Source: an uncultured Candidatus Saccharibacteria bacterium (GTDB lineage: Bacteria > Patescibacteriota > Minisyncoccia > Phycocordibacterales > CAIZLB01). Taken from it: a DNA stretch of 64,000 nt. Made by a program: the position numbers and the translations under genes. This document shows positions 15,512-43,099 of this stretch, one piece after another (within the stretch, counting starts at the first letter, position 1; each line of letters opens with the position of its first letter). Under the pieces are notes generated by a model. The model ran no database searches and had not been told where the DNA came from. It saw nothing but the letters and a program-made list of their open reading frames with translations. The stretch is from positions 503,931 through 567,930 of the forward strand of contig CAZKAF010000001.1 in NCBI GenBank assembly GCA_964550955.1, in the 5' to 3' direction.

Positions 15512-18049
15512 CTAGTAATCGTAGAAATGATCTATCTCGACGCCCCTTTGCTTCAGTTCCGCATGAACCTCGTCAATCTGCCGAACAGGCAGGCTCACCG
15601 TAATCCGATCCTTATAATGCTTGATTCCGTTTTCTATCGACTGCACTTCCCCGTATCGCAGTATCTCTTTCGTCAGGGACGAAGGGTCGCTTCCGACTTC
15701 GTCGAGATAGCTGAACGTGATGATGCTGTTCCCCGCTATTTCAAGAATCTCGAAGTCCGCGCCCGAGGCAAGGGCTTCGTCCAGCTTCGACTTGAGAGCG
15801 ACAGTGAAGGGCTGGTAATGAGGAGCCGTGACCGTTCCGTAGGCGCCGTCCTCCCTTACCAAGGCGGTTATGACGTCGTCCTGCACTCCGAACTTGGTTT
15901 CCGTCGCCGATCGGATGACCCATGAATAGAATCTCTTCGCGGTCAGCTCGAAGGAAAGGAACATCTGCCGCTCGAACTTTCGGACCCATCCGCCGATGCC
16001 GTAACCGCTCGGGTCATGAGGCAGTCGATACAGCTCGTCGTAATATCTGTAATATGGAAAGTTGTACCAAGGATTGTCGTAGATGAACGCGTGATAATCC
16101 TTCGCGAGGCGCGCGGCGAACCTGTCCTCCTCCGATTGCCTGCCGCCCGAAACCTTCTCGCTCAATTTCCCTATCGTATTTTCATATGCCCATTTGGCGG
16201 CATTTTCAAAAGTGAAGCTCCAGCCGATGACTTTCAATACGAGGCCGTACCCGGAATTCTGATTCGGAGACCCGATGGCATAGCCCTGAACCTTCCCGTG
16301 CTCCGACCAGTATTCCTTGATGGCGCCGAGATAATCGAACTGCGAAGGCAAGCCGTCGCGGAGCACGTTCGCATATTCGACGGCGCTGTATACGATGTAC
16401 CATTCCGGCAATGTCAGATATATGTTGTCCACATTCCTGACGTAGTCGGTTCCGGCCAGGGTGCTTGAAGCGAAATCACGAGCCGCCTTCGCTTCGGCCT
16501 GCAAGTCTATTTGCTCAGGATCATAGTATGTTTCCCATAAATTATTAGTGAATTTATTATCAGGATCGTATTTTTTCTTTATCTTAAAATAATCCAGCGC
16601 TCCGGGATACGCCCGCAGGAACTGCTCGCCGGTCGCATGAGGCTGATACGGCAGATAATACGTGCCGCCGACGCTGAGGACCTGATCTATCATTTCCCTC
16701 GTCCATCGGGCGACATGGTCCCGCGAAGCCTCGTCCGTTCCCTGCTTGTAGTAGACGACAAACGCGAATACCTCCTCGTTCGCCCAAGCCAGAGTCGCCC
16801 CCGGATCTTTCTCGGCATGGCGAATCGAGACGTTCAGCACGTTCACGTCGTTGCCGACGAAGACATCCTTCATCTTCGGATAAAATTCATCGAAGCGATT
16901 CACCGGCACGAAATACTCCTGAAGAACATACGTCGAATCCTTTCGGCTCATGGGCTCAAGCTCGGCAACGTCGTAGCTGGCCTCGTAGTTTCTGGAATGC
17001 ACAGCATCTTTCGAGTAGATGAGAGGGTCCAGGATATATTCGCGGATATCCTTGCCGAAAGGCCACTCGCTCATTACTACCCATGCGATTCTCTCCGTAA
17101 TGTAATCCTTGGCCCGGGGAATGAGCCTCGTCGGAGTATTCGCAGGCCTGTCGGTCTTGGTCCAGCTCACGGCGCTGACGCTGTCAAAATCTAGCGGATA
17201 GATGTCTCCGTTATGAAAGACAACGTCTCCGGATTCTCGGACATTGCCGAAGAAATAGTCCTTATACTCCGAGATCGGCATCTTCACTCTCTGCCTTTCG
17301 ACGTTCACGTTGTCCGCCAAAGCCAGCGTCACTTCGGTGATGACGCCGATGCCGCCCATTCCGCCTATCGCGGAATAAAACAGCTCTGAATTTTCCGTCG
17401 GGCTGGCGTTCACCGCAGTGCCGTCAGCAAGCACGAGCCTGAAGCCCCTGACGCTCATGATTACCGGACCGAGGCCGACGTATCGCCCGTGCACGTTTAC
17501 TGACAAGGAGCCCCCGACCGTAAAGTTCGAGTACGTCTGCATCACCATGACGGACAAGTCTTCAGGATCAATCCGCTCCTGAATTTCCCTCCACCTGATG
17601 CCGGCCTGAACCGTGATTTCTTTCGTGGTCGTCGAGAAGTCCAATATCTTGTTGAACTCCCGCATGTCTATCTGCACCGCTTTCTCGCTGGCGGTCTGTC
17701 CGCCCATGCTGTATCTTCCCCCTCCGATCGAAACCTTGGAATGAGCCTTCACGGCTTCCTGAATTTCTTCGGTGCTGTGCGGAACGATGACGCCTTCGAC
17801 CTTTATGGGGTAGAGGCCGGTTACGTCCCGCACGATGTTATTTTTCGCATCGGCCTGCGCCTGCTGCTGCCATTCATTTTTAGGCGACCTGAAAAATGAC
17901 AGCACCCAGACTACCAGCGCCAAGAAAGCCAGGGCAAGGAGAATCAAAAAAGCTTTCAGGATTTTTCTTCTATGCGCATGCAGCGCGGACAAGCCTTTTC
18001 TGACCCCTCGCGCGCATGCCCCGAAGAAGCTCTTGAAAACTTTTTTCAT
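15512..18049 (-). CDS. Membrane-anchored FAD-linked oxidase (FAD_binding_4/PCMH + ALO-like domain) fused to ~325-aa C-terminal domain of unknown function
   Basis: N-terminal TM helix. FAD-binding PCMH region (GGGRYSMGGQ...). ALO/BBE-like C-terminal motifs (PYQPHATGEQF...YDPDNKFTNNLW). A further ~325 aa has no recognisable family. Confidence 0.75.
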   Translation of the reverse strand: MKKVFKSFFGACARGVRKGLSALHAHRRKILKAFLILLALAFLALVVWVLSFFRSPKNEWQQQAQADAKNNIVRDVTGLYPIKVEGVIVPHSTEEIQEAVKAHSKVSIGGGRYSMGGQTASEKAVQIDMREFNKILDFSTTTKEITVQAGIRWREIQERIDPEDLSVMVMQTYSNFTVGGSLSVNVHGRYVGLGPVIMSVRGFRLVLADGTAVNASPTENSELFYSAIGGMGGIGVITEVTLALADNVNVERQRVKMPISEYKDYFFGNVRESGDVVFHNGDIYPLDFDSVSAVSWTKTDRPANTPTRLIPRAKDYITERIAWVVMSEWPFGKDIREYILDPLIYSKDAVHSRNYEASYDVAELEPMSRKDSTYVLQEYFVPVNRFDEFYPKMKDVFVGNDVNVLNVSIRHAEKDPGATLAWANEEVFAFVVYYKQGTDEASRDHVARWTREMIDQVLSVGGTYYLPYQPHATGEQFLRAYPGALDYFKIKKKYDPDNKFTNNLWETYYDPEQIDLQAEAKAARDFASSTLAGTDYVRNVDNIYLTLPEWYIVYSAVEYANVLRDGLPSQFDYLGAIKEYWSEHGKVQGYAIGSPNQNSGYGLVLKVIGWSFTFENAAKWAYENTIGKLSEKVSGGRQSEEDRFAARLAKDYHAFIYDNPWYNFPYYRYYDELYRLPHDPSGYGIGGWVRKFERQMFLSFELTAKRFYSWVIRSATETKFGVQDDVITALVREDGAYGTVTAPHYQPFTVALKSKLDEALASGADFEILEIAGNSIITFSYLDEVGSDPSSLTKEILRYGEVQSIENGIKHYKDRITVSLPVRQIDEVHAELKQRGVEIDHFYDY

Positions 18050-20956: not shown

Positions 20957-21028
20957 GCGATGTGTCCTCCTGTATGTGTTTGGGTTGAATAGCTCTTCGT
21001 ATCTTGAAAATATGCAAAGAACCACGTG

Positions 21029-21102
21029 TGTCGGCGGGAGGGAACGATCCTCCGACCTCGGGCTTATGAGTCCCGCGCTCTAACCAACTGAGCTACGCCG
21101 AC
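21029..21102 (-). tRNA. tRNA-Met (anticodon CAT), elongator type or tRNA-Ile2
   Basis: Reverse complement reads GTCGGCG-TA-GCTCAGTTGGTTAGAGC-G-CGGGA-CTCATAA-GCCCG...GGAGG-ATCGTTC-CCTCC-CGCCGAC-A. G1-C72 is paired, so not a bacterial initiator. T-loop is atypical. Confidence 0.65.
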
Positions 21103-21170
21103 ATGTACTGGCTACTATAATACATTACTCCCCTTTTTTCAATCTTGAGCCCGAAACGAGGATTAAAGGA

Positions 21171-22151
21171 TTAATTGGCGATCATCTCGGAAAGAACCTC
21201 GACGGTGTCATGATATGAGCTCACGGAAACGCACTGAACGCCCGTGCTTATGACGGAATGGTCATTGCCGCCTTCAAAAAGCGCATCGCCGAAAAAGACG
21301 GCCTTTTCAATCGGCAATGCCAATTGTTCCAAAAGCCGCGTCACGCCGAAAGCCTTGTTGATGCCGGACCTGACAATGTCGATGGATGTGGAGCCTCCGA
21401 TTTTGAGTTCAAACTGAGGTATTCTTTCTCTGAGAAATTCAACTAATTTTAATCGAATCTTCATGTCCGGATCCCAGGTTTTTTTTAGCTCATACGGCGC
21501 ATTCTGTCCCAGTCCCGAGAACGTCACTTGAGATCCCCTATCTTCAACAATTTCCCCGAACGCCCGTTCGGGCTTTTGATATAGGCCGCTTTCAATAGCT
21601 TGATTCACCGCTCCGATAATCAAATCTTTTTCTTCCTTGGAAAAATATTCAGCGTACTCTTCCTTCCACACATCTCTTTTAGTAACATCCTGCGCAATTC
21701 TTGAAATGTCAGCAGTGCCGAGTGCGTCAGCAGCGTCACGAATGCCGGCGACACCCATCGCCTCTTCATCAATGACATCCACGCTTGCGCCTGCGTAAGA
21801 ATACATGCAGGCGCCCGATGTCGGCAGCAGATACATGTTCTTCAAAAAATCAAAGTTGTCCGCGAGGACCTCACCAGCCGAATCAGCTTCGAAGCCGCGG
21901 TTTCCAGCATCAGCAGCGCCATCTGCAACAAGGCCGGCCCTGTCGTCGTCATCGAAGTCGCACATTTTTTGCACGATCTGCGCGGTCATCTGCTCAAACG
22001 TCGCTCCTGATATGAGAGCTACTTTTTTCGCGGAAGAGAGCGTCCGAAGAGTCCTTGCCATGTCGGGAGTCAAAGGCATCTTGCTTTCGGTCAGAGTCCC
22101 GTCGATATCAAAAATGAATATTTCTTTCTCTTTTATTTCTTTTTCTTTCAT
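21171..22151 (-). CDS. Eukaryotic-type phosphomannomutase (HAD-IIB, PMM/Sec53 family) with Asp/Ala-rich insertion
   Basis: N-terminal FIFDIDGTLT motif, C-terminal FFGDALFEGGNDHSV (cf. Sec53 FFGDKT.EGGNDYEI). ATG at 22151 (MKEKEIKEKEIFIFD). ORF-track start at 22184 probably over-extended. Confidence 0.7.
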   Translation of the reverse strand: MKEKEIKEKEIFIFDIDGTLTESKMPLTPDMARTLRTLSSAKKVALISGATFEQMTAQIVQKMCDFDDDDRAGLVADGAADAGNRGFEADSAGEVLADNFDFLKNMYLLPTSGACMYSYAGASVDVIDEEAMGVAGIRDAADALGTADISRIAQDVTKRDVWKEEYAEYFSKEEKDLIIGAVNQAIESGLYQKPERAFGEIVEDRGSQVTFSGLGQNAPYELKKTWDPDMKIRLKLVEFLRERIPQFELKIGGSTSIDIVRSGINKAFGVTRLLEQLALPIEKAVFFGDALFEGGNDHSVISTGVQCVSVSSYHDTVEVLSEMIAN

Positions 22152-22232
22152 GTACGTAGGTATATAAGCTGATTCATGGCGCAAGGGAAAATGAGGGCAA
22201 ATAGCCGCGACAAGCGCAAGCGAGCGCAGAAA

Positions 22233-24137
22233 TCATCCTGCAGCCTGCAAAGTCTTGAGGATGTCCGCGATTCCGAACGTTGCCACGCCGGTCACGTAAT
22301 CCCCTCCGCCATAATAGATGCGGCACGCATTTTCTTTCACGACGATTCCGCACGGGAATACCACGCGGGAAACGACGCCGTTCAATTCATACTGAGTTTC
22401 GGGCTTGAAGATGGGCGCCGCGCTTCGGGCCTTCACGATGGTCGGATTTTTCAGATCGAGAAGGACGGCTCCGACGCTGTATACCCTCTCCGCCGAGACG
22501 CCATGATACAGAAGCAGCCAGCCTTCTTCCGTCTTGACGGGAGGCGTCGCCGCGCCTATCTTCCAGCCGTCCCACATGCCCCTTCTCGGCCCCATGACAT
22601 CGATGCATTTCGAGAGCGGCTGCGGATCGTCGAGCGACTCGATATAATCGGCGCAGATATGCTCGCCGATTCGATGAATGACCATGAATTTTCCATCAAT
22701 TTTATCTGGAAAAATGCAGGCATCCTTGTCGTCAATGGTATCCGGAGTAAGCGCGAATGGCTCTGACCAGGCATCGAACTTTCTTTTCAGGAAATCGGAA
22801 ACTGAAATGGAAGACATGACGACCCTCGGGACTTTCCCGTCATACCCCGTATATGTCATGTACAGGCGCTTGCCTATTTTCACCACTCTCGGATCCTCGG
22901 TTCCGTAGTTTGAGTCTTCGCCGGAAGCGGAAATTTCGAAATCAGCTCGCCCTCTGTAGACAGGCTCATCCAATCGCTCGTCAATGACGAAGCCGTCGGA
23001 CGAGACGGCCAAGCCGATGACGGAAACGTTCGACTTGGTAACCGCCCGATACAATATATAGGTATTCCCCTCAAGCTCGATGGCGGCAGGATTGAAGACC
23101 CCTCCTTCTTCCCACTCAAAGCCGGGACGAGGAGCAAGTATGGGATTCTTCGCATATCGCTTGACCAGGTGGCCGGGATTGACCAGCGCGTTCAGGAGCG
23201 GCTTCAGAGGGATGGAAGCGACGGCCGAATGCGTGTCCGAAGCGCCGTAGTACAGTTCGACTATATTTTTCCGAAGCAATGCCCCGGACGGAAAGACGAT
23301 ATTCGAAATCAGGCCGATTCTTTCATAGTGATCTTCGGGGACCATGAACGGACTGTCGGTTCTTGAAATGATCTGCAGGGGATTTTCAGAATCGAGAAGG
23401 AGCGCTTCGACACCGAAGACGGGCGCGTCGGTTCCGTATCCTTGGATATGAGAGTAAATGAGCAGCCAGCCGTCCTTCGTCTTCAGCGGCGCGGCGCCCA
23501 CTTCGACTTGATCATGCTCATGCCTTTGAATGTGCAGCTTGTGATCGTCGAGATGCGCATACCAGCTATCCCAATATTTTTTCGACCACATGTCCTCGAT
23601 CTTCTTGAAGCGCGCGATGCAGATATCCGAAGGCTTGCGATCCGTATTCACGGCGAGAATGGCCACGTACTCGCCGTTGATTTTCTCCGGAAAAAGGGTC
23701 ATGGCCTTCGCGTTGAACGGAGTGACCAGGTGCCGCTCGTCTATGTTTTTCAAATCGCGCGTGACGGCGACGGCAACCTTGATATTGTCCGCTGAAAAAG
23801 GAAACCCTCCCAGGGCCGTATAAAAAATGTAATGCACGCCGTCGATGGTCGTGGCTCGGGGATCCTCCAATCCGAACTTCTCATATTCTTTCTCCGGCGC
23901 GATGAGCACTCGCCTGTCTTCGAACGATCCTTTCCCGTCTTCCGTGGCGCAGCCGATGACGGACATGCGAAACGAAGGGCTGATCATGTGGTCGACGCCG
24001 GACATGGCGCGGTACAGAAGATTCAATTTCTTCTTGTGAATGACGGGCGACGGATTGAAAGTCGCGACCGATTCCCAGGGATGATTCTTTATCGGCGAAA
24101 GTATTGGATTTTTTGAAGAAGGAGTGACTGAGAACAT
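22233..24137 (-). CDS. Tandem double GH130-family (mannoside phosphorylase/beta-mannosidase-like) protein
   Basis: Two ~310-aa repeats, each with GH130-like motifs (EDPR...G..Y..YT, DGW.L.YH, YYGASD/YYGGGD). 5-bladed beta-propeller family. Confidence 0.75.
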   Translation of the reverse strand: MFSVTPSSKNPILSPIKNHPWESVATFNPSPVIHKKKLNLLYRAMSGVDHMISPSFRMSVIGCATEDGKGSFEDRRVLIAPEKEYEKFGLEDPRATTIDGVHYIFYTALGGFPFSADNIKVAVAVTRDLKNIDERHLVTPFNAKAMTLFPEKINGEYVAILAVNTDRKPSDICIARFKKIEDMWSKKYWDSWYAHLDDHKLHIQRHEHDQVEVGAAPLKTKDGWLLIYSHIQGYGTDAPVFGVEALLLDSENPLQIISRTDSPFMVPEDHYERIGLISNIVFPSGALLRKNIVELYYGASDTHSAVASIPLKPLLNALVNPGHLVKRYAKNPILAPRPGFEWEEGGVFNPAAIELEGNTYILYRAVTKSNVSVIGLAVSSDGFVIDERLDEPVYRGRADFEISASGEDSNYGTEDPRVVKIGKRLYMTYTGYDGKVPRVVMSSISVSDFLKRKFDAWSEPFALTPDTIDDKDACIFPDKIDGKFMVIHRIGEHICADYIESLDDPQPLSKCIDVMGPRRGMWDGWKIGAATPPVKTEEGWLLLYHGVSAERVYSVGAVLLDLKNPTIVKARSAAPIFKPETQYELNGVVSRVVFPCGIVVKENACRIYYGGGDYVTGVATFGIADILKTLQAAG

Positions 24138-24178
24138 GTGAATATTTGTGATGAATAATGCAAGCTACCGAAGGCGCG

Positions 24179-25381
24179 TCATGAGGAAGAGCCGCCCCTC
24201 CCGGTCACGGTGCTGTTTTCCCTAAGCCAGCTTAATAATTTTTCTATCGGCATGTGAGCGGCGCACACATGCTTGTCGCCTCCTCCGTAATACACGTGCA
24301 ATATGCCTTCCTGAAGCACGGCGCCGCAAACGTAGACCACCCCCGGCTTCGAATCGTTTTCATACCACATGTCCGGAGTCAGAACGGGGCGCGAGGACCG
24401 GGCAATCACCTTCTCGGGATTATCGAGATCAAGAAGCATCGCGCCGAGCTTGTATTTGTGAGACTCGGTCTTGTCAGTCGCATGGTAGAGCACAAGCCAG
24501 CCGTCCTCCGTCTTCACTGGCGGGGCGCCCACCCCTCTCGGCCACGTATCCCATTCCTCCCGCTCCTTCTTCGATCCGAAAACGCTCTGTATTTTCTTGA
24601 CTCCGCGGACAATGTCTTTCATGTCATCGACATAGTCCACCTGAATTTTCGGCGAAATGCTGTGCAAAATCGCAAATTTTCCCTGAATCTTTTCGGGGAA
24701 AATTACCCAATTCTTGTGTATCTCGTTTTTTGGCGAAATTAGCACGGGCTTGGACCATTTCCATTTCTGCTCCAGAAAATCTTTCTTTGAAATCGTCGTC
24801 AGGGCAATCCGTATGAAATCCCAGCCGTCGAAGGCGCTGAACGTCAGATAAAACCTGTCCTCGATAAGGACCATGCGCGGATCCTCGCACCCTCCCCAGC
24901 TTCCGCCTGACGGATACATGACCGGGTCATATTTCCTGGAATCATGATGCCCTTCTCGTTCTTTTTGATTCCCGGCTCTCTTCAGGCCCTCAAGATTCCG
25001 TTCCATCAGCCGAGGACTTTCCATGAAGAAGACGGGGTATGGCAATCTGTCAAAATCATGGCCGTTCTCGCTTGACGCGTATCCGAACCTCGAGACGCCG
25101 TCAGCGCCTATGGCCCTGTATATCAAGTGAACCGTTCCGTCCTCGTCGTGCCAGGCCGCCGGATTGAACGTGCCTCCGTATTCCCATTCATTCTCGATGG
25201 ACGGGCTTATGACAGGATTGCTGGCATGACGCCTTACGATTTCGGCATGACTCTGAGCGCCCGCAGTCGCGCGTCCCTTTCCGGCAGAACGAAAAAGCCC
25301 CGAGACGATGTATGAGACAAGCAGGAAAAATAGCGCGGCGGAAAGTATTAAGAATGCAAGATTATATATTTCAGATGCCAT
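24179..25381 (-). CDS. Membrane-anchored GH130-family glycoside phosphorylase/hydrolase
   Basis: N-terminal TM helix, then a GH130 domain (CEDPRMVLIEDRFYLTFSAFDG, DGWLVLYH, YYGGGD). Confidence 0.75.
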   Translation of the reverse strand: MASEIYNLAFLILSAALFFLLVSYIVSGLFRSAGKGRATAGAQSHAEIVRRHASNPVISPSIENEWEYGGTFNPAAWHDEDGTVHLIYRAIGADGVSRFGYASSENGHDFDRLPYPVFFMESPRLMERNLEGLKRAGNQKEREGHHDSRKYDPVMYPSGGSWGGCEDPRMVLIEDRFYLTFSAFDGWDFIRIALTTISKKDFLEQKWKWSKPVLISPKNEIHKNWVIFPEKIQGKFAILHSISPKIQVDYVDDMKDIVRGVKKIQSVFGSKKEREEWDTWPRGVGAPPVKTEDGWLVLYHATDKTESHKYKLGAMLLDLDNPEKVIARSSRPVLTPDMWYENDSKPGVVYVCGAVLQEGILHVYYGGGDKHVCAAHMPIEKLLSWLRENSTVTGRGGSSS

Positions 25382-25766
25382 GAGCGACGCTTGCGTTATT
25401 GCTGACGACCTCCCGACCGTACTGATCCTCCACCCTGATAATGTCCTGCTCGTCGAAGTCCCCGGTGGAAATTTCGAGAATCACGAGCGGCTCGTCTGTT
25501 GACTGGATCCGATGAGTCTTTCCGACGATGACCGAATGCCGCTCGCCCGGTTTTGCCTCGAAGACATCGTCTCCGATATGCAGAAAGCCTTCCCCGGAAA
25601 TGACAACCCAGAATTCGCTTCTATGATTGTGATACTGCAAGCTTGTCGACTGGCCGGGATTGACGGTGATGAGCTTTACCGTGGATTGAAGATTATGAGT
25701 AAACTGATCGAACGATCCCCAGGGCCGATCTTCGTGATATGCATTGAGTTCGGAAGAGTCTTTCAT
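25371..25766 (-). CDS. Cupin-type mannose-6-phosphate isomerase (type II PMI cupin domain, stand-alone)
   Basis: RPWGSF...GQSTSLQYHNHRSEFWVVISG...GERHSV...HRIQ...LVILEISTGDFDEQDIIRVEDQYGR matches the C-terminal PMI domain of ManC-type enzymes. Overlaps the downstream GH130 gene by 11 nt. Confidence 0.7.
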   Translation of the reverse strand: MKDSSELNAYHEDRPWGSFDQFTHNLQSTVKLITVNPGQSTSLQYHNHRSEFWVVISGEGFLHIGDDVFEAKPGERHSVIVGKTHRIQSTDEPLVILEISTGDFDEQDIIRVEDQYGREVVSNNASVAHGI

Positions 25767-25849
25767 TTCACCTTAATTTTAGAACATATATCCGCATATG
25801 CCCAGCACGTTATGTACAGCGCGAATGCGATTCATGCGCGCCCGGCAAA

Positions 25850-25891: not shown

Positions 25892-26255
25892 GACCATCTC
25901 TCTTGTTGCGGGTCGTGGAATTGCACCACGTCTATAAGGTTATGCGTACTTCTACAGTTTTCACTGCGCCTGTCTCTCGACAGACTTTGGAGTCTGGACT
26001 ATACCTTCATCTGGAGAACGAATTCTCCAGAGTCCACCGTCTAGTCTCTACACCTTCATGAACATAAATGTTCAAGCTTGGCTCGGTATTGCCATGCGAT
26101 TAAGCAAAGGTTTCACCGAATTTGATGGATGTTTTCCATACAACATCGCTGTCGTATGAGCCCTATTGAGCCTCATGTGCTACTGTTACACTTACCCGCT
26201 ATATTGCACCCTGTGAGTATAATACAAAATCGGAATCGTGCAAGCTTTTCCGGCG

Positions 26256-27029
26256 CTATATAAAATAAAACTCGTCGAAGACTTTCTTGTACAGGCGAAT
26301 GGCCCTGTCAGCTTCCTCTTTCGTCAGTATGTAATCGGCGCCCTCATGCGCGATGATGTTTCGAATGCGATGCGCTTTCCATGCCTCGTCCAGCGTCGTG
26401 AACGAAGACTTGTCAGCCTGCTTCAGCATTTCGCCTATCGAATCGCCAGGGTACCCCATCTGACTGAGCATGTCGTACAGCAATATGTCCGCCTCGAGAA
26501 TGGCGATCCTCCATTCTGACTGGTTCGGGGAACTCGCATGCCGCTCTACCTGTTCCCATTTAGGATTCGCGTACTTTTCCTGCGCAGGCGAATGACCGCC
26601 GGCCGAATGCTGGCCAGGAAGGCCGGGCAAGCCGAAACTTTGAGAGCTTCCCTGCTGCGCGGCCGCTCCGAAGCCTTGCGCGCCTTTCGGCCTCTGCATC
26701 AGGCTCTCCGAATTCGCGACATGGCTTTCGTGCGCGACGACGATTTCCTTATGACCCATCTTTGCATAGAGAATGCCGAGCACCAGCACGAAAGAAATGA
26801 AAATGGAGACGAAGCTCACGCTTTCAAGAAATGATGAGAACGCGTATGAGATGCGATCGCCGATGCCGGGAGTGATGACGTTGACATCGCCGCTGTATCC
26901 GAAAAACATCGCCACCGTCGGAAATATCACGAACAGGACAAGGACGACGACCATGAGGCCGAAAACCCATTCGTTTCCTCCTCCGCTGCTGCTGCTCGCT
27001 GGTTTTGCTGGTTTTTTAGGATCGGCCAT
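26256..27029 (-). CDS. Membrane-anchored protein with C-terminal HEPN-like domain (Rx4HxG motif, DUF4145-like)
   Basis: Gly/Ser-rich N-terminus, two TM helices, low-complexity linker, then a ~100-aa helical domain with KAHRIRNIIAHEG (R-x4-H HEPN signature). Confidence 0.5.
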   Translation of the reverse strand: MADPKKPAKPASSSSGGGNEWVFGLMVVVLVLFVIFPTVAMFFGYSGDVNVITPGIGDRISYAFSSFLESVSFVSIFISFVLVLGILYAKMGHKEIVVAHESHVANSESLMQRPKGAQGFGAAAQQGSSQSFGLPGLPGQHSAGGHSPAQEKYANPKWEQVERHASSPNQSEWRIAILEADILLYDMLSQMGYPGDSIGEMLKQADKSSFTTLDEAWKAHRIRNIIAHEGADYILTKEEADRAIRLYKKVFDEFYFI

Positions 27030-27056: not shown

Positions 27057-27485
27057 TTACTCCTGAGTAATGACGAAGCCCTTATCTTTTAATGTCGCGA
27101 CCGTCGAGTCAATCAGGATATTCAGGTCGCCTTCAGGAATGGCCTCGCCAGGATTGTTCAATCCGCCCGCATTGATATGCCCGAGCACGAATTCCCTGAC
27201 TTGGCTTCGCGCAAACTCTTTCTTGTCCCCGCTTGCGGCAGGGCCGGATTCGCTGATCAAAGATTGCGCGACCTCATTTACCAAAACTGCAAAAGGCCCG
27301 TCTTCGTCGGAAAGAGATTCTTCCGCTTCGCCCGGACTGTCCCCTTGCGCTTGAAGCTCGTGCTGTTTTTCCTCCAATTTCTCCAGCAAAGAAAGCAGCC
27401 CGGAAGCTCCTTTTTCAGTAAGCTCTTCCTTGCCGGCCGAATTCCCTTCGTCGAACCCCGGATTTCTAAATCCTTCGAAAATCAT
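27057..27485 (-). CDS. Hypothetical acidic protein
   Basis: ATG at 27485 (ORF-track start is TTG two codons upstream). Glu/Asp-rich, no family. Confidence 0.4.
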   Translation of the reverse strand: MIFEGFRNPGFDEGNSAGKEELTEKGASGLLSLLEKLEEKQHELQAQGDSPGEAEESLSDEDGPFAVLVNEVAQSLISESGPAASGDKKEFARSQVREFVLGHINAGGLNNPGEAIPEGDLNILIDSTVATLKDKGFVITQE

Positions 27486-27502
27486 ATACAACTAGTATAC
27501 CA

Positions 27503-31766: not shown

Positions 31767-32381
31767 CTAATACGACAAGACTATGGCTCGCTCCACCACT
31801 CGAGGATTCGTAAGGTTGCAAGACCCCGAACTTGGCGTAGCCGGCCCTGAATACCCCACGCTGCCGGTGAACGGCGCATTGTAACCTCGGGAGTCGATAT
31901 GAGTATAGACCCTGACATCGTCAGGATCGGAATCATCCACTGTTTTCGTGACGGTCACGAAAGCGCAAGACGGGTCGCTGCCCGGTCGGGTGTAATTGAC
32001 CGAAAAGGTTGTCCTGACCACATTGGGAATTGAAAAATCATCTTTTAGAAACCCGCCGATTTGACCAGTGCCGCCTCCAAAACCGCATTTGATGCCGTCA
32101 AGAATGTCGACATCGGTTGTCGTGCTGGCGAAAACTCCCTCGAATGTCGTAAGGCCGGCGATGTCCTTTCGATCCCAATACAATGCACATTCTGCCCCGC
32201 TATCAGCCGCATAGAATGCGATCTGAGATTCTTTTCCAGTACTTGAGAAAATGAGCTGTTTCAAAATTATGTTACCGAGAGACAGGCCGATCGCAAGCAG
32301 CATGCTTGATACGATCACGGCAACAAAAAGCGTGAATCCGCTTCTTGCATTTGCCTTTTTAAGTGAGGGTGCGCATTTCAT
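31767..32381 (-). CDS. Type IV minor pilin/pseudopilin (prepilin-type N-terminus)
   Basis: Leader MKCAPSLKKANARSG|FTLFVAVIVSSMLLAIGL (no Glu at +5). ATG at 32381; ORF-track TTG at 32387. Confidence 0.65.
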   Translation of the reverse strand: MKCAPSLKKANARSGFTLFVAVIVSSMLLAIGLSLGNIILKQLIFSSTGKESQIAFYAADSGAECALYWDRKDIAGLTTFEGVFASTTTDVDILDGIKCGFGGGTGQIGGFLKDDFSIPNVVRTTFSVNYTRPGSDPSCAFVTVTKTVDDSDPDDVRVYTHIDSRGYNAPFTGSVGYSGPATPSSGSCNLTNPRVVERAIVLSY

Positions 32382-32391
32382 GGTCAATCAA

Positions 32392-33048
32392 TTAAAATTT
32401 ATCAAGCTGCCAGTTATTAAGATTATCGCGAAGAAGCACCGAATGGCTGCCGGAAGGAGTGTTCCACTTTACCCGTACGGTGACGACAAGTTCCCTGCGA
32501 ACAGCCTCCAAAAACGCATCGTCATCGGTGCCGCCCCCTGTTGCAGCGTACGGAGGTATGCTGAAGATGATTTCTCTGGTAAACCTCGAATAGGTAGGTC
32601 CCGCCCCCTCTCCATATGTAGCGTATCCTTGAACATTCTCCGGATCCCAATACTTCAAACGCCCGCAGACACCGCTTGGGCACATCTTGAGCGTGTACCC
32701 GCTCGAACTGCGTTCAAGATTCATCTTACGGCTTTCGCCCGACTCATTCAAATGCCACGCCCTCACTCCCGAGTATATCTTCGGCACGACGCCTGCAAGC
32801 CAGTCATCGGCAGCTTCCGGCGGATCCTTTAAAGCATTGTTGTCTCGCTGATTTCGCAAGTACTCTATGGCCTCTTGAGCAAGGTAAAAAGCGGTGACCT
32901 GGTCTCGCGCATAAAATGAATTTCGAAGAGCCTGAGAGATGATCGAGAGAGGACCGGTCAATGCGATGGCGAGTATGGAAATGGCGACCAGCGTCTCGAT
33001 GATCGTAAAGCCTTTTTTATGCGATGTTTCTTTATGTGTAAATTTCAT
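32392..33048 (-). CDS. Type IV minor pilin/pseudopilin
   Basis: Leader MKFTHKETSHKKG|FTIIETLVAISILAIAL, class III signal with Glu+5. ATG at 33048. Confidence 0.65.
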   Translation of the reverse strand: MKFTHKETSHKKGFTIIETLVAISILAIALTGPLSIISQALRNSFYARDQVTAFYLAQEAIEYLRNQRDNNALKDPPEAADDWLAGVVPKIYSGVRAWHLNESGESRKMNLERSSSGYTLKMCPSGVCGRLKYWDPENVQGYATYGEGAGPTYSRFTREIIFSIPPYAATGGGTDDDAFLEAVRRELVVTVRVKWNTPSGSHSVLLRDNLNNWQLDKF

Positions 33049-33068
33049 AATCGTTCTGCGTGATTTTG

Positions 33069-33737
33069 TCAATCGATTCCTATGTTAAGAATTCTCTGCG
33101 ATACGAAAGTTTGAAGCACGAAATCAGACTCCTTGGCATTAGGTCCCGCAGTTCCTGAAATCAAAATGAAAATGCTCGGCTGAACAGTCCCTCCCGGCGC
33201 AGGGCTATTCACATAAAATTTGGCCGATTTAATATTGACTTCAGGAGGAGTAATGTCCGTTTCAACCCACATATCCGCTTCAGGATCGAAATAAGTTTTG
33301 ACAATCCTTCCTGTGCGATTTATCGTCTGCGGCTCAAATCGATACTCCACCCCCAAAGGGCTGCCTGACAACACGGACACGAAGGCAACCACTGTCTGAG
33401 GGGCGCTTACGGCAGCTGCGCAGAGAATGTCATCGGAAGCAGGAATCTGGTAAAAATTAGAGGAAGGGTCTTCCATCTCCGAGAAATCGTAATTTCCCTC
33501 GCATCTGTAGAAATACCCCGTCTTCATGTCTCGGACCATGCTCTCAATTGCAAAGTTCAAATTATTAACCACCGCATTAATTGCCTGCGCCTTTCGATTC
33601 CCCCCAATGATGCTTAGCACGACGGATACCGCGACGAGCATGAATACGGAAAAAATCGCAACGGAGACGAGCATCTCTACCAATGTAAAGCCCGACTTGG
33701 CCTGGATATTTTTTTTGCTAAAGTGAAATCGCATCAT
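33069..33737 (-). CDS. Type IV minor pilin/pseudopilin
   Basis: Leader ...NIQAKSG|FTLVEMLVSVAIFSVFMLVAV. Confidence 0.65.
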   Translation of the reverse strand: MMRFHFSKKNIQAKSGFTLVEMLVSVAIFSVFMLVAVSVVLSIIGGNRKAQAINAVVNNLNFAIESMVRDMKTGYFYRCEGNYDFSEMEDPSSNFYQIPASDDILCAAAVSAPQTVVAFVSVLSGSPLGVEYRFEPQTINRTGRIVKTYFDPEADMWVETDITPPEVNIKSAKFYVNSPAPGGTVQPSIFILISGTAGPNAKESDFVLQTFVSQRILNIGID

Positions 33738-33751
33738 GTGAATCTATTATA

Positions 33752-34468
33752 TTACGAATTCGCGCAGAGAGTGCTGGATGAATCCACTATTCGAGTCTGA
33801 CCGGTCGGCTCAATGACGACAACCTTGCAATTCTCTCCATCGCCAGTATCAACCACGATGTACACCCGGTCTCCAGGGTATGGCGCCAAGGCATCGCTGC
33901 CCCCTCTTTTTGCATAGACCCGCGGGGCAGGATTCGGCCTTTTGAATACGACGTGAACCTCAGTGGCAACAAAATCAGGATTAGTTCCGCATGCGGGCTG
34001 GTAAGAACCCTCAAGCTTGCCGACGCAGATAGTTCGAATCCTGTTCGTTCTCTGATTCTGAAATATGTATTGGATTACCTCTTCGCCAGGCTCATATGTC
34101 GGCATGCTTGTCCCTGAAGACGTATTCGAATAGACAACGACTTGCCGGGGACTTGCAATGTTAAAATATGCACCGGCTTCGCTTTCGAAATTGCCGACAT
34201 CTCCAGCCGCCCGCACGCTGATGCCGTACAGCTGAGCCTCCCTGACTGCCAGCGCAATTTCATACGCCATATTTGTCAAAAGCGTATTGCTCGAGAGCTT
34301 TGCCTGATCGAACAGCGCGATGGAGCTGACAATGGTGAATATCGCGATTACGATGATCATCTCCGCCAGCGTGAAGCCCGCATTGACCAGCCTGCGCGTT
34401 TTTTTGACTGCCTTTCCTGCAGCATCCTGCACGCTTTTATAGAACGTTTTGCGCATGTTTAATTTCAT
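33752..34468 (-). CDS. Type IV minor pilin/pseudopilin
   Basis: Leader ...RRLVNAG|FTLAEMIIVIAIFTIVSSIAL. Overlaps the pilD stop by 4 nt. Confidence 0.6.
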   Translation of the reverse strand: MKLNMRKTFYKSVQDAAGKAVKKTRRLVNAGFTLAEMIIVIAIFTIVSSIALFDQAKLSSNTLLTNMAYEIALAVREAQLYGISVRAAGDVGNFESEAGAYFNIASPRQVVVYSNTSSGTSMPTYEPGEEVIQYIFQNQRTNRIRTICVGKLEGSYQPACGTNPDFVATEVHVVFKRPNPAPRVYAKRGGSDALAPYPGDRVYIVVDTGDGENCKVVVIEPTGQTRIVDSSSTLCANS

Positions 34469-35436
34469 AGAATATACTCGAGCGGCTCAAATATATTATA
34501 CCCAAAAAAGAAGACGATAAGAAGACCTGCTATGAGAAAAGGCGCGAACGGAATTTCGCTTTTCAGCGACAAGACCGGCACCTGGAAGCCCGTCGCGTAT
34601 TTTATGACACCCTTGATCTTGCGGAAAACCGATCTCATGCTCTTGAGCTTGTTCATGGACGTGGACGCACGGCCGAGAACGAGAAGAATGATGGAAACTG
34701 CCGCGCCTATCCAGAATCCGTAGATGATGGCGCTGGCCCCGGCCGACAAGCCAAGGAACCATCCGATGCCGAGGGACAATTTTGCATCTCCCAACCCCAT
34801 CCAGCGGCCGTCCGATACCAGCCAAAGTATGTAGAACGGGAAAGCCAGGATAAGGCCCGATGAGAGCGACAGCAGGGTCGGGATCACGAGCCTGATCTGG
34901 CCCGAGCCGTCGAAACCGAGAAACAGCGTGACGAGCGCAAGAGCGGCAAACGTATATGAAAACAAATCCGGAATTATCTTATGCCTCATGTCATAGACGG
35001 TAATGAGGACAAGGAACGCCATGATGACGCATGTGTAGAAAGTCTGAATCAGAAACTGGACCGGATACGCGAGAGCCGTCGGCGCGAAAACCAGGTACGT
35101 TCCCAGAAACAGAAAGGCGGTCAATAATTCTACGGCAGGATACTGAAGGGAGATTTCGCTTTTGCATGTCCGGCACCTTCCCCTGAAGGCGACATAGCTC
35201 AGCACGGGAATGAGGTCAATGGCGCTCAGATGCCTCTTGCATGAGAAGCACTGCGACCTTCCCATCAGGCCCTTGCCGGTATTGTATCGATACAGCACTA
35301 CGTTCAAGAAGCTTCCGATGATGGCGCCGAGCCCGAGAAAAAAAATGCTGAGTACAATATTCACGCATATATCATATCTTAGTTTATTGCCAGAGCAAAG
35401 GATGCGCGTGCGTTCAAGAGACGGCCTCGGCGCCAA
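34465..35436 (-). CDS. pilD: Prepilin peptidase (A24 family)
   Basis: N-terminal GLGAIIGSFLNVV, Zn-binding CxxC...CxxC (CFSCKRH...CRTCKSE), and multiple TM helices with the catalytic-Asp regions. ORF-track start is TTG at 35436; a GTG at ~35364 (VNIVLSIFFLGLG) fits family N-termini better. Confidence 0.85.
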   Translation of the reverse strand: MAPRPSLERTRILCSGNKLRYDICVNIVLSIFFLGLGAIIGSFLNVVLYRYNTGKGLMGRSQCFSCKRHLSAIDLIPVLSYVAFRGRCRTCKSEISLQYPAVELLTAFLFLGTYLVFAPTALAYPVQFLIQTFYTCVIMAFLVLITVYDMRHKIIPDLFSYTFAALALVTLFLGFDGSGQIRLVIPTLLSLSSGLILAFPFYILWLVSDGRWMGLGDAKLSLGIGWFLGLSAGASAIIYGFWIGAAVSIILLVLGRASTSMNKLKSMRSVFRKIKGVIKYATGFQVPVLSLKSEIPFAPFLIAGLLIVFFFGYNIFEPLEYIL

Positions 35437-35468
35437 GGAAAGTCATGCACGGCAGGGTTTGAATGCAG

Positions 35469-35561
35469 CCCGCCAAACTCTTAAGAGGCAATACAAAACC
35501 CGCCTTTTTGGGGCGGGTTCTTGGGTTTTGGGGAAACTGAAAATTTAGACTAGTTGCAAAC
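35469..35561. repeat. 93-nt direct repeat, copy 1 (pilin 3' flank including terminator)
   Basis: Identical to 36152-36244. Confidence 0.85.
35495..35520 (-). terminator. Terminator after pilA (inside the duplicated 93-nt 3' flank)
   Basis: Minus strand reads AACCCGCCCC-AAAAA-GGCGGGTT followed by TTGTATTG. Confidence 0.6.
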
Positions 35562-35987
35562 AGCTCCCGTAAGAGTCGAAGAAGCTGACTTTCCAGTACT
35601 ATCTACACAGTATGTTGTTCCGCCAAACGCCGCTGCAACCGCCCATGTCGTCTCAGTCACGCTACAAGTTACCGATGTTGTCTTACCGTAAACGCTAGTG
35701 ATAAGCGCACCTAATCCATTCGCGCCTCCGAGTACGTTAGTTGTCTGACCTGTTGTACAAGCTGTGCCTGTTCCTGCAACTACGTCAGAACCGCTGGCCT
35801 TATATTTGTTAGCTGCACTGTAGTAAAGCTCAGCCTGCGCTCGCATGTTCGAGAGCTCGTTCTGGACCGCCGCCGCCGTTCCCCTGGACCGAGCCGTCGT
35901 GAGGGACGCGAGCACTACTGATGATAGGATACCGATGATGGCGATTACCACCAAGAGTTCGATGAGTGTGAAACCTCGAGTTTTCAT
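35550..35987 (-). CDS. pilA: Type IVa major pilin
   Basis: MKTRG|FTLIELLVVIAIIGILSSVVLASL, a canonical class III signal with a 5-aa leader and Glu+5. C-terminal Cys pair. ATG at 35987; ORF-track TTG at 36041 is less likely. Confidence 0.8.
   Translation of the reverse strand: MKTRGFTLIELLVVIAIIGILSSVVLASLTTARSRGTAAAVQNELSNMRAQAELYYSAANKYKASGSDVVAGTGTACTTGQTTNVLGGANGLGALITSVYGKTTSVTCSVTETTWAVAAAFGGTTYCVDSTGKSASSTLTGAVCN
35835..35972. repeat. 138-nt direct repeat, copy 1 (conserved N-terminal pilin coding block)
   Basis: 100% identical to 36488-36625. Divergence starts exactly 5' of the LIELLVV codons. Confidence 0.85.
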
Positions 35988-36151
35988 AATCGAATTGATT
36001 GAATTAAATGTAAATTGAATACCTGTTAAATTTTTCTTCAAAAGTCACGCAAACGCGACCTTGTATTCCTGATCTTCGACAGACCAAAAACGTGCCTTTA
36101 TTATACCAACTTATACAAAGGTAAAGATACCCTTGACCTGTGGATAGATTT

Positions 36152-36244
36152 CCCGCCAAACTCTTAAGAGGCAATACAAAACCCGCCTTTTTGGGGCGGG
36201 TTCTTGGGTTTTGGGGAAACTGAAAATTTAGACTAGTTGCAAAC
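36152..36244. repeat. 93-nt direct repeat, copy 2 (3' flank of silent pilin cassette)
   Basis: Identical to 35469-35561. Contains the same terminator hairpin (36178-36202). Confidence 0.85.
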
Positions 36245-36652
36245 TCCGCCTGTGACAGCGATAGTCGTTGTGCTTTTCTTAGACACCCCCTTGCTATCCA
36301 CGCAGAAGTAATCTGATCCTGCTGACGCAGTAACTGCCCAAGCCTGAGCCGGTGTTCCTGAAGCCACGCAAGTTGGAGTTATGCTTTTAGCTGCAATACC
36401 ATCAAGAAGCGGCTTGAGCCCGTTTGCTGATGTGAAAAGAGTGCCAGTTGAACAGTCTCCGGCAGTTCCATAACTTCCCGTTGTACTGTAGAACAATTCA
36501 GCCTGCGCTCGCATGTTCGAGAGCTCGTTCTGGACCGCCGCCGCCGTTCCCCTGGACCGAGCCGTCGTGAGGGACGCGAGCACTACTGATGATAGGATAC
36601 CGATGATGGCGATTACCACCAAGAGTTCGATGAGCGCGCCGGCCGCCTGAAG
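36233..36652 (-). pseudogene. Leaderless/promoterless pilin paralog (silent pilin cassette)
   Basis: Conserved N-terminal mature-pilin block is identical to pilA, but there is no Met, no KRG|F leader and no class III cleavage site. Upstream in-frame sequence is TAG(pilC stop)-LQAAGALIELLVV. C-terminal half diverges from pilA. Confidence 0.6.
36488..36625. repeat. 138-nt direct repeat, copy 2
   Basis: 100% identical to 35835-35972. Confidence 0.85.
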
Positions 36653-37861: not shown

Positions 37862-37953
37862 GGTTTTGTTTGCTTAGCTTCGATTGCCTGAAATCCCGAA
37901 TGAGTCCGCGCTTGCAGGGCCGCTTTTTTCTGCCAACAGCGGCATCGCCCGGC

Positions 37954-39015: not shown

Positions 39016-39018
39016 ATC

Positions 39019-39417: not shown

Positions 39418-39465
39418 GGTTTTATTTTAAGTATACCAATTGTTGCCTGGATAATGCTGAAAGTT

Positions 39466-41190: not shown

Positions 41191-41198
41191 GGAGTAAA

Positions 41199-41663: not shown

Positions 41664-41670
41664 ATATTTT

Positions 41671-42210: not shown

Positions 42211-42215
42211 GATAA

Positions 42216-42989: not shown

Positions 42990-43099
42990 GTACGTTTATA
43001 TTCCCTCTTAGTATATCATCCAACTTCCTCAAACATCAACACGCGTATACACAAACGGGCATCCGTCCGGGCCCGCCCGACTTTGATCTGATCCGAACG

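Follow-up and report, generated by a model that had tools for sequence, protein, structure and literature searches.

Which reactions can be expected from three modules of one glycosidase family, GH130, when they are encoded side by side in a single operon? The question is raised by a locus of an uncultured Candidatus Saccharibacteria bacterium. The stretch analysed in this work, hereafter the window, spans 64,000 nucleotides (positions 503,931 to 567,930 of contig CAZKAF010000001.1, assembly GCA_964550955.1), and the coordinates given below are window positions, unless preceded by a locus label. Four genes encode, from upstream to downstream, a cupin-type mannose-6-phosphate isomerase (PMI), a membrane-anchored GH130 protein (the "up" module), a fused double GH130 protein (the N and C modules) and a sugar-phosphate mutase of the HAD superfamily. 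A preliminary description of the DNA regarded the GH130 proteins as phosphorylases releasing mannose 1-phosphate (Man-1-P). Aligning the residues involved in phosphate binding does not sustain this view, since the set is complete only in the C module.

Residue criteria are available for the family. According to Li 2020 (PMC7660257), GH130 phosphorylases are recognized by a proton-donor Asp and by a phosphate-binding Arg/His pair (R168/H231 in UhgbMP), and a Glu/Lys pair is a marker of beta-1,2 specificity. GH130 hydrolases lack three basic residues and carry Glu227 and Glu268 in their place, Lys199 marking the beta-1,2 linkage (Cuskin 2015, PMC4599007). The corresponding study on Uhgb_MS pointed to K184, R202 and R242, found a 16-fold lower phosphorylase activity in the R202A mutant, and described the phosphate Arg as the determinant of phosphorylase versus hydrolase activity (Ladeveze 2025, PMC12814180). 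Mannose binding by Asn28, Asp92 and Asp281 has been reported for Teth514_1788 (Chiku 2014, PMC4264767). Reference sequences were rebuilt from PDB alignments, and aligned with the modules of 4 loci, then of 23 loci from bacteria of the candidate phyla radiation (CPR) and archaea. The catalytic core made of N, D and D at the Asn28, Asp92 and Asp281 columns is found in all three modules in 23/23 loci. The Arg of subsite +1 and the Glu/Lys pair are similarly retained, the E and K being invariant in the C, N and up types. Since the acid Asp, the Asn and Asp of subsite -1, the +1 Arg and the Glu/Lys pair are all kept, the three modules are predicted to bind beta-1,2-linked mannosides. The substrate class proposed earlier, beta-mannosides, can thus be maintained, and narrowed to beta-1,2 linkages by the Glu/Lys markers.

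The divergence among the three modules is at the predicted nucleophile site. The column of the inorganic phosphate (Pi)-binding Arg ("HR") is H488-R489 in the C module, L161-A162 in the N module and H240-S241 in the up module. The third basic residue is K526 in C, replaced by Q210 in N, and by P281, followed by R282, in up. The Pi-binding His ("YH") is part of Y544-H545 in C and Y299-H300 in up, and is replaced in the Y228-S229 pair of N. The residue following the beta-1,2 Lys is D472, A145 and N224 in C, N and up, respectively. Members of all three clades are automatically annotated as "beta-1,2-mannobiose phosphorylase" or "DUF377". Neither protein reaches the cut-off (450) of NF052550, the NCBIfam equivalog for beta-1,2-mannobiose phosphorylase, the fused protein scoring 396.7 with its two modules summed, and the anchored protein 204.9. 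As judged by the residues, the automatic phosphorylase label is probably wrong for two of the three modules.

The C module carries both the Arg/His pair and the third basic residue, and E414-D415, K471-D472, H488-R489, K526, Y544-H545 and D613 are invariant in 23/23 loci. It is 38-39% identical to Teth514_1788 and Teth514_1789, and PDB entry 9FJ8 matches residues 324-626 of the fused protein at E 6e-50. By residues and homology, the C module looks like a beta-1,2-mannoside phosphorylase. The two Thermoanaerobacter enzymes are the closest characterised relatives of each module (33-39% identity), and share with them the catalytic Asp, the mannose-binding Asn/Asp/Asp, the Glu/Lys markers and a short L2 loop. 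The two systems are also alike in having several adjacent cytoplasmic GH130 paralogues, and Man-1-P as a product, which is predicted here. Yet, both Thermoanaerobacter enzymes are canonical phosphorylases, in contrast to one of the three modules here, and a membrane-tethered member and an N-C fusion are found only in the locus described in this work. The genetic settings differ as well. The Thermoanaerobacter cluster includes an ABC transporter, a GH5 glycosidase, a mannose-1-phosphate guanylyltransferase (GMPP) and a GT4 glycosyltransferase, and has been proposed to feed GDP-mannose synthesis, whereas here the partners are the PMI cupin and the HAD mutase, with no transporter.

The N module retains N28, R43, E91, D92, K144 and D301. 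Arg or His residues at the Pi columns were found in 0/119 homologues, and two carboxylates specific to the clade, E212 and D166, are conserved in 119/119 and 118/119 of them, respectively. The local alignment of the corresponding segment to the beta-1,2-mannosidase BT3780 starts exactly at E212, which is paired with residue 272 of the 5A7V chain. The chain index exceeds native numbering by 4, as anchored by D142 at chain position 146 and D363 at chain position 367, and residue 272 is therefore Glu268, the catalytic base of BT3780. The distance from the marker Lys to this Glu is 68 residues in the N module and 69 in BT3780. Changing Glu268 into Gln reduced the activity of BT3780 200-fold (Cuskin 2015, PMC4599007). 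The second carboxylate, D166, may not be equivalent to Glu227 of BT3780. R167, in the "DR" of the NTDR motif, had been considered as a phosphate Arg because paired with "HR" by HMMER; the residue is conserved in 26/119 homologues, and was discarded on the basis of the 23-locus and 119-sequence alignments. The loss of the three phosphate residues, the invariance of D166 and E212 and the alignment of the latter with Glu268 mark the N module as hydrolase-type. The same combination of missing basic residues, carboxylates in their place, and conserved Lys marker and acid Asp is found in the GH130_3 enzymes BT3780 and BACOVA_03624 (PMC4599007; 5A7V, 3QC2). However, unlike GH130_3 members, the N module has no signal peptide, its N-terminus (MFSVTPSSKNPILSP) lacking a hydrophobic segment; it is predicted to be cytoplasmic, is fused or adjacent to a phosphorylase, and is overall nearer to beta-1,2 phosphorylases of GH130_6 than to GH130_3 (E 1e-40 versus 1e-15). 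The N module would thus be a hydrolase-type module of independent derivation.

The up module is a third case. The best PDB matches of the anchored protein are 9FJ8 and 7FIP, and the acid Asp167, the beta-1,2 markers Glu166 and Lys223, and the Pi-binding His300 are retained. The phosphate Arg is found in 0/110 homologues, and Ser takes its place in 104/110 (Ser241 here). A hydrophobic residue or Pro (Pro281 here) occupies the third basic position, and an Arg is shifted by one residue (Arg282). R282 is conserved in 109/110 and K345 in 108/110 homologues, W225 and N224 are invariant, and W225, R282, K311, K345 and Y350 are clade-specific invariants of the anchored protein in the 23-locus alignment. 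It is conceivable that an anion site has been rebuilt elsewhere from R282 and K345. Of the phosphorylase signature only the His is present; the columns at which hydrolases are recognized are occupied by Ser, by a hydrophobic residue or Pro, and by Gly, and no Asp or Glu is invariant in a subfamily-specific manner. As far as residues tell, the anchored GH130 conforms to neither of the two canonical patterns, that of phosphorylases and that of hydrolases, and may still act as a phosphorylase, or exploit other phospho-donor chemistry. Lys and Arg residues are concentrated after the transmembrane (TM) helix, with a mean of 4.62 in the 15 amino acids (aa) that follow it versus 0.12 in the 15 aa that precede it, and the excess is seen in 94/94 TM-bearing homologues. 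The catalytic domain is therefore predicted to be cytoplasmic (N-out/C-in), and a periplasmic location of the enzyme was rejected. The choice between phosphorylase and hydrolase, which the preliminary description had left open for this copy, can thus be reformulated for a cytoplasmic enzyme whose residue pattern matches neither class. A TM anchor is found in 88 of 110 close up-type homologues, and others have poly-Lys N-termini. In some lineages an N-terminal extension of about 275 aa stands in place of the anchor, as at L009:4182-4985, L014, L022 and L025, and in about 20 database proteins. By hhalign (probability 98.9%, 17% identity) the extension is a degenerate propeller of the GH130 type, its catalytic EDPR motif having given way to other residues (consensus CSNFRFS); Pfam is blind to it.

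Is the association of these modules peculiar to one genome? An identical four-gene order occurs in metagenomic sequences or metagenome-assembled genomes (MAGs) at loci L002, L003, L004/L005 and L008, where the fused protein is 67-68% identical. With the fused protein as query, a scan in which each GTDB species was represented by a single genome identified 28 loci. Full-length N+C fusions, 44-51% identical, are found in Saccharibacteria, Paceibacterota/Parcubacteria (including RAAC4_OD1_1), Taylorbacteria and Roizmanbacteria, and also in archaeal MAGs labelled Brockarchaeota, Aigarchaeota and Thermoproteota. A second GH130 gene adjoins the fused gene in nearly every locus, and in about 25 loci the trio lies together; most CPR loci also have the cupin gene, and 13 of the loci the HAD mutase gene. 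The four-gene order in several loci and the GH130 set in more than 25 argue that the arrangement is not fortuitous, and chance adjacency of the GH130 genes was rejected by this recurrence. Cupin and mutase are the only recurrent partners of the trio. Clustering all flanking ORFs revealed no recurrent uptake or glycan-synthesis neighbour, and only lineage-restricted families, namely a generic ABC ATPase/exporter seen at 4 loci, an iPGM-like metalloenzyme seen at 3 related archaeal loci, and others without annotation. In these Brockarchaeota/Thermoproteota loci (L017:4525-5859, L018:4537-5862 and L023) the iPGM-like gene (PF10143/PF01676) lies immediately upstream of the fused GH130 gene, and a conserved unannotated protein of about 458 aa flanks the other GH130; the metalloenzyme may act as a sugar-phosphate mutase of non-orthologous origin, or may just be a neighbour from glycolysis.

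In a distance tree N, C and up sequences form three monophyletic clades with parallel internal topologies, with 46-52% identity within clades and 29-38% between clades. The modules are therefore old paralogues, inherited or transferred together. The presence of three GH130 modules, one of them anchored by an N-terminal TM helix, had been correctly noticed (PF04041 matches both proteins); "triplicated", the term used for them, is acceptable as a count, but a recent triplication was rejected by the low identity between modules. Unfused versions occur at L036 and L037 in the order HAD - up - N - C. Architectures were surveyed with clade-specific hidden Markov models in a representative library of 1.84 billion proteins. 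Among the best 150 matches there were 86 up, 22 N-C, 21 C, 11 N and 5 up-up proteins, and one each of the types C-N, up-C, up-N, C-C and up-N-C. The up-N-C protein (P0361, L038:6001-8916) is 971 aa long, and features three PF04041 stretches. Its gene overlaps the end of a GMPP gene devoid of a PMI domain, and lies downstream of genes for a GT2 synthase, an epimerase/dehydratase and a UDP-glucose/GDP-mannose dehydrogenase. None of the five partner families of L038 was found in the window or in the other loci, about 30, by phmmer at E<=1e-6. A different fusion, encoded at L019:4351-5973 in a MAG labelled Rhodocyclaceae, joins a cupin (PF01050, residues 92-194) and an up-type GH130 (residues 228-530) in one protein of 540 aa. 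According to Li 2020 (PMC7660257), a few GH130-GH130 proteins are present in CAZy, and a CPR genome paper mentions "two GH130 enzymes without signal peptides".

The ORF check placed the four genes on the minus strand, with an 11-nt overlap between the cupin and the anchored GH130 genes, and gaps of 41 nt, and then of 48-81 nt, between the remaining ones (Table 1). The co-directional, overlapping or abutting arrangement reported at the outset is thereby upheld, as are the four family assignments, on which the Pfam and NCBIfam profile scores agree. The cupin matches the PF01050 profile in full. Only the C-terminal positions 361-467 of the bifunctional GMP_PMI model TIGR01479 are matched, at 81.7 bits (cut-off 372.95), indicating a stand-alone PMI domain without guanylyltransferase. 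The RPWG motif (P15, W16, G17), S42-L43-Q44-x-H46, R49, E51, W53, H85 and the D108..R111..D114..G117-R118 series are invariant in 15 loci, and the metal ligands Q44, H46, E51 and H85 of type II PMI domains are among them. By homology, the cupin was assigned to stand-alone type II PMIs.

The mutase is translated from the ATG at 22151 according to gene callers and orthologues, the TTG at 22184 being an alternative start. The HAD motifs D15-x-D17-G-T (T19), S48-G49, K266 and D289...G295-N296-D297 are invariant in a 52-sequence alignment. The best stretch of the PF03332 match covers only profile positions 91-219. The alpha-phosphoglucomutase (APGM, or PgmH) of Lactococcus lactis (4BND) is the nearest relative by phmmer (E 1.9e-38, 36% identity over 231 aa), phosphomannomutases (PMMs) scoring 1.7e-16 or weaker. 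An AlphaFold model built with 52 homologues (pLDDT 87.7, pTM 0.85) is of low confidence only in two insertions, at about residues 65-100 and 121-150, and Foldseek again placed 4BND first (E 3.9e-25, TM 0.84, 28% identity), followed by eukaryotic PMMs (about 1e-16, 18-20% identity). In the cap, the stretch corresponding to the substrate loop of PMMs reads G-E-I-V-E-D-R-G-S...S-G-L-G-Q, to be compared with E-N-R-E-S...S-A-I-G-Q in APGM and G-T-F-x-E-F-R-N-G...S-P-I-G-R in PMMs. The Arg of the E-x-R motif is thus kept, and the Arg of the G-R pair is replaced by Gln216, nearly invariant in the mutase family. Patescibacteria, DPANN archaea and Bacteroidota encode hundreds of proteins of this family. 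The mutase is therefore a PMM-family HAD-IIB enzyme of the bacterial PgmH/APGM subgroup, ordinary for the lineage. The earlier definition of a eukaryotic HAD-type PMM holds for the Pfam and structural family, which is not that of alpha-D-phosphohexomutases, and fails for the nearest relative, which is bacterial, and for the cap loop, which is of the APGM type; nor is the choice of enzyme unusual, as had been supposed. The L. lactis protein is likewise a bacterial HAD-IIB enzyme with the E-x-R ... S-x-x-G-Q pattern, but differs in being a glucose-phosphate mutase with a DxDNT motif, whereas the enzyme described here has DxDGT, a cap region extended by two long low-complexity insertions, and a place in a mannoside operon. 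Given the closeness to PgmH/APGM, mannose specificity is suggested by gene context only, the HAD gene adjoining the GH130 set in 13 loci. An Asp/Ala-rich insertion, noticed at first sight, turned out to be two, both Asp/Ala/Gly-rich and both missing from mutase homologues of about 250 aa. The second is missing even from the closest orthologues (L002-L004), and P0006 alone has an unrelated Asn/Thr-rich insertion at the same site, which suggests that this is a permissive surface loop of the cap domain.

Table 1. Coordinates of the GH130 operon, its parts and its upstream flank.
Feature	Position	Strand	Details
Intron-split atypical tRNA(CAU)	25908-26199	-	intron 25945-26168 (224 nt), inserted in the anticodon loop between positions 33 and 34
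Promoter-like site, between upstream tRNA and cupin start	25776-25804	-	TGGGCA-17-TAAAAT, 9/12 matches; consensus match only
Cupin ORF, stand-alone type II PMI	25371-25766	-	131 aa; PF01050 PMI-C 81 bits (cut-off 23.6), profile positions 13-116 of 116; Cupin_2
Anchored ("up") GH130 ORF	24179-25381	-	400 aa; PF04041 138 bits (cut-off 26); membrane-tethered, predicted to face the cytoplasm, remodelled phosphate site
TM anchor of the up protein	25292-25372	-	about residues 4-30, then RSAGKGR; Kyte-Doolittle maximum 2.69
Fused double GH130 ORF	22233-24137	-	634 aa; PF04041 315 bits, two stretches (cut-off 26)
N module	23181-24137	-	residues 1-319; predicted hydrolase-type, no phosphate site
C module	22233-23171	-	residues 323-634; canonical beta-1,2-mannoside phosphorylase signature
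HAD mutase ORF, from TTG	21171-22184	-	337 aa; PF03332 48.5 bits (cut-off 22.4), TIGR01484 HAD-IIB 75.1 bits (cut-off 41.8)
PgmH/APGM-like HAD-IIB phosphohexomutase, from ATG	21171-22151	-	326 aa
First mutase insertion	21852-21959	-	Asp/Ala/Gly-rich, about residues 65-100; variable in nearest orthologues; pLDDT 53-77
Second mutase insertion	21672-21791	-	Asp/Ala/Gly-rich, about residues 121-160; pLDDT 54-63

How may these enzymes work together? We favour the view, on which confidence and doubt are about evenly balanced, that the operon serves a cytoplasmic, membrane-proximal turnover of beta-1,2-mannosides, reversibly coupled to fructose 6-phosphate (Fru-6-P). The C module, as its residues and homology suggest, would phosphorolyse beta-1,2-mannosides at the non-reducing end with Pi, yielding alpha-Man-1-P. 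The PgmH-like mutase would convert Man-1-P into mannose 6-phosphate (Man-6-P), a step proposed from gene context only, and the cupin would isomerize the latter into Fru-6-P, in keeping with motif-level homology. The N module is proposed to hydrolyse because Asp166 and Glu212 are found where phosphorylases have basic phosphate-binding residues; its most likely target would be a beta-1,2-mannosidic bond beyond the reach of the phosphorylase, such as that in the limit disaccharide, or that to a primer or aglycone. The anchored enzyme, at the inner face of the membrane, would probably act on a membrane-associated form of the substrate, since it is tethered, and its sugar subsites are kept while the anion site is rebuilt. 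The three modules would operate as one unit, as suggested by the parallel trees, by the adjacency in about 25 loci, by the same order in split forms, and by fusions of the N-C, C-N, up-C, up-N and up-N-C types. Catalytic activities, specificity of the mutase, direction of flux, and identity and origin of the substrate are here inferred from homology, residue patterns, co-inheritance and fusions, which are directly observed.

The operon had been initially described as a complete ATP-free route from mannosides into glycolysis. The link from Man-1-P through Man-6-P to Fru-6-P is backed by co-location, and by the cupin-GH130 fusion of L019. To call the route ATP-free is too simple, since hydrolysis would yield free mannose; nor is a complete path from external mannosides supported, as no uptake system is linked to it. 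No signal peptides were found, and a transporter is linked to the genes neither here nor recurrently across loci; the conserved cluster comes without transporter, binding protein, secreted glycosidase, kinase, GMPP or glycosyltransferase. The routing itself resembles the beta-1,4-mannan route of Bacteroides fragilis and Ruminococcus albus, in which, as cited in PMC7660257 and PMC12871903, Man-1-P released by GH130 enzymes is turned into Man-6-P and Fru-6-P, one ATP being saved per mannose. That route differs in using GH130_1 and GH130_2 enzymes with Tyr/Arg markers of beta-1,4 specificity, an epimerase and transporters, a PMM of the alpha-D-phosphohexomutase type and a type I PMI, and in being fed by plant mannan.

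Several points weigh against the turnover of beta-1,2-mannosides as proposed. No source of beta-1,2-mannosides is known for these organisms, and a kinase for free mannose was not found within the 64-kb window. The archaeal loci carry the GH130 pair only, without cupin and HAD genes. The nearest characterised relative of the mutase is an alpha-phosphoglucomutase, and PgmH reportedly has no PMM activity. The pairing of E212 with Glu268 comes from alignment coordinates and an inferred +4 offset, not from a superposition. Finally, in the related GT108 family the partition between phosphorylases and transferases is not predictable from active-site residues alone (Franceus 2024, PMC10913872).

The reversibility of all steps and the lack of a linked uptake system make a serious rival of a cycle in which the cell makes its own cytoplasmic beta-1,2-mannan from Fru-6-P, by reverse phosphorolysis or transfer, and stores it as a reserve. 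The tethered GH130 would be the primer or polymerase, the C module a reversible phosphorylase, and the N module a trimming hydrolase; a polymer of this kind would serve as an ATP-independent buffer of carbon and energy, as mannogen does in Leishmania. To our knowledge, no mannogen has been described in prokaryotes. The parallel is close in some respects. The combination of PMI, PMM and GH130-fold paralogues with different donor sites recalls the Leishmania system (MTP1-7 of family GT108, PMM and PMI; Sernee 2019, as cited in PMC7660257 and PMC10913872), where beta-1,2-mannan chemistry is cytoplasmic and coupled to Fru-6-P through Man-1-P, PMM and PMI, and paralogues of the same fold vary in their phosphate-site Arg and consequently in the donor they use. 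It is set apart in that the enzymes belong to GT108 and synthesis depends on GDP-mannose, and neither a hydrolase-type member nor a membrane tether is known to occur in it. The cycle would also fit the conservation of the system in tiny-genome organisms, and the lack of linked transporters, signal peptides and extracellular glycosidases; moreover, GH130 beta-1,2 phosphorylases with a short L2 loop also use GDP-mannose, though weakly (PMC12814180). However, a literature search retrieved no report of beta-1,2-mannan in CPR bacteria or in these archaea, no GDP-mannose pyrophosphorylase gene is present within the window, and the anchored copy lacks the donor-phosphate Arg residues of Uhgb_MS (R202 and R242; PMC12814180), which predicts inefficient use of GDP-mannose or Man-1-P. 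A reserve of this kind is possible, yet unlikely.

The same residues bear on the proposal that all three modules are phosphorylases, with relocated Pi residues in N and up, and different chain-length preferences, as Teth514_1788 and Teth514_1789, so that Man-1-P would enter without ATP. N and up modules do, overall, match the beta-1,2 phosphorylases 7FIP and 9FJ8 better (E 1e-40 to 1e-49) than they match hydrolases of the family (E 1e-12 to 1e-19), the up type retains the Pi His and might rebuild an anion site with the invariant R282 and K345, the R202A change costs Uhgb_MS only 16-fold in phosphorylase activity (PMC12814180), and automatic annotation labels all modules as phosphorylases. We regard this as improbable, as in 119/119 N-type sequences the three basic residues are missing and two carboxylates are invariant, the pattern that defines GH130 hydrolases (PMC4599007), the Arg is found in 0/110 up-type sequences, and both proteins score below the equivalog cut-off. 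Alternatively, the N module might be a pseudo-enzyme that binds mannosides, and positions or regulates the C-terminal phosphorylase. Degenerate GH130-like propellers are fused to up-type enzymes in other lineages, and BT3780-type hydrolases are themselves slow (PMC4599007); unlike propellers devoid of the EDPR motif, N-type modules have lost neither the catalytic Asp nor any subsite residue in 119/119 sequences, carry the two invariant carboxylates, and also occur stand-alone, all of which makes a non-catalytic role very improbable. A further proposal reverses the sense of the pathway, with cupin and mutase working anabolically (from Fru-6-P to Man-1-P), and the GH130s recycling a membrane-made beta-mannoside, to supply Man-1-P for GDP-mannose and envelope glycans. 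This role was put forward for Teth514_1788 and Teth514_1789, whose genes adjoin GMPP and GT4 genes (Chiku 2014, PMC4264767). The triple fusion of L038, found with GMPP, GT2 synthase, epimerase and sugar-nucleotide dehydrogenase, would fit it, and so would the tether, which would put the enzyme beside a membrane synthase. Yet, the L038 partner families are found in none of the other loci, about 30, nor in the window, where GMPP and glycosyltransferase genes are missing altogether, and this direction of flux seems to us improbable.

The neighbours of the operon in the window are typical of Patescibacteria, the phylum whose MAGs are also the source of the closest homologues. They include ligA, gatC/gatA, gmk, a type IV pilus cluster and an Nramp transporter gene; a Pfam scan of 30 further window ORFs found no sugar transporter, GMPP, glycosyltransferase, kinase or glycolytic gene. 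The pilus cluster (31767-44224, minus strand), typical of CPR episymbionts, comprises a prepilin peptidase (34465-35436), a PilC-like T2SSF protein (36653-37861), PilT-like (37954-39015) and PilB-like (39466-41190) ATPases, PilM (43100-44224) and four pilin-like N_methyl ORFs. An 845-aa protein (15512-18049, minus strand) with an N-terminal TM segment, a FAD_binding_4 domain at residues 85-215 and about 600 further residues without family match adjoins a 134-aa membrane protein and an alpha/beta hydrolase. Between gatA and the tRNA gene upstream of the operon, two minus-strand genes encode proteins without Pfam or NCBIfam match, one of 257 aa, hydrophobic in its N-terminal region and rich in Gly, Gln and Ser in its middle (26256-27029), the other of 144 aa and acidic (27057-27491); homologues of both reside at the equivalent position in L002 and L003.

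The 489-nt "intergenic" stretch upstream of the operon hosts a group I intron, which matches RF00028 at 55.2 bits (E 2e-13; the gathering score is 50) and splits the tRNA(CAU) gene listed in Table 1. ARAGORN detected no tRNA in the unspliced DNA, nor in splice variants at default stringency, and called it only after manual splicing at -ps90; orthologues then confirmed the call, the spliced tRNA (69 nt) being identical at 69/69 positions to intronless syntenic genes (L002:3997-4065 and L003:1203-1271). On the other side, 68 nt past the end of the mutase gene, there is a normal tRNA-Met(CAT) gene (21028-21102, minus strand), accompanied by a promoter-like site (21114-21142), so that two tRNA genes with a CAU anticodon bracket the operon. 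The number of promoter-like sites in the region does not exceed the expectation from shuffled sequences.

The flow from mannosides to Man-1-P, Man-6-P and Fru-6-P is already known from users of beta-1,4-mannan, as adjacent beta-1,2 GH130 phosphorylases are from Thermoanaerobacter. A literature search retrieved no description of a triad with three different nucleophile sites, of its fusions, of a cytoplasmic hydrolase-type clade, or of a tethered clade with the Ser variant. As a model family, GH130 illustrates how a single fold can switch between phosphorolysing, hydrolysing and transferring glycosyl units. The unit described here, conserved in many uncultivated lineages, brings three states of the nucleophile site side by side, or into one polypeptide, and provides a natural test set for the residue rules of Cuskin 2015, Li 2020 and Ladeveze 2025. 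A bolder conjecture, in our opinion rather unlikely, is that ultra-small CPR bacteria and some thermophilic archaea keep an intracellular pool of beta-1,2-mannan, as a reserve or osmolyte, made and degraded by an ATP-free machine of three GH130 enzymes that PMI and PgmH-type mutase would wire to Fru-6-P. The tethered enzyme, its donor site rebuilt, would initiate or polymerise the chain, the second enzyme would be a reversible phosphorylase, and the third a hydrolase-type trimmer in the cytoplasm. If true, prokaryotes would have their own equivalent of the Leishmania mannogen cycle, with GH130 enzymes in place of those of GT108. As to the biology of CPR bacteria, the operon points to a conserved, transporter-less metabolism of beta-1,2-mannosides in cells endowed with very few sugar pathways.

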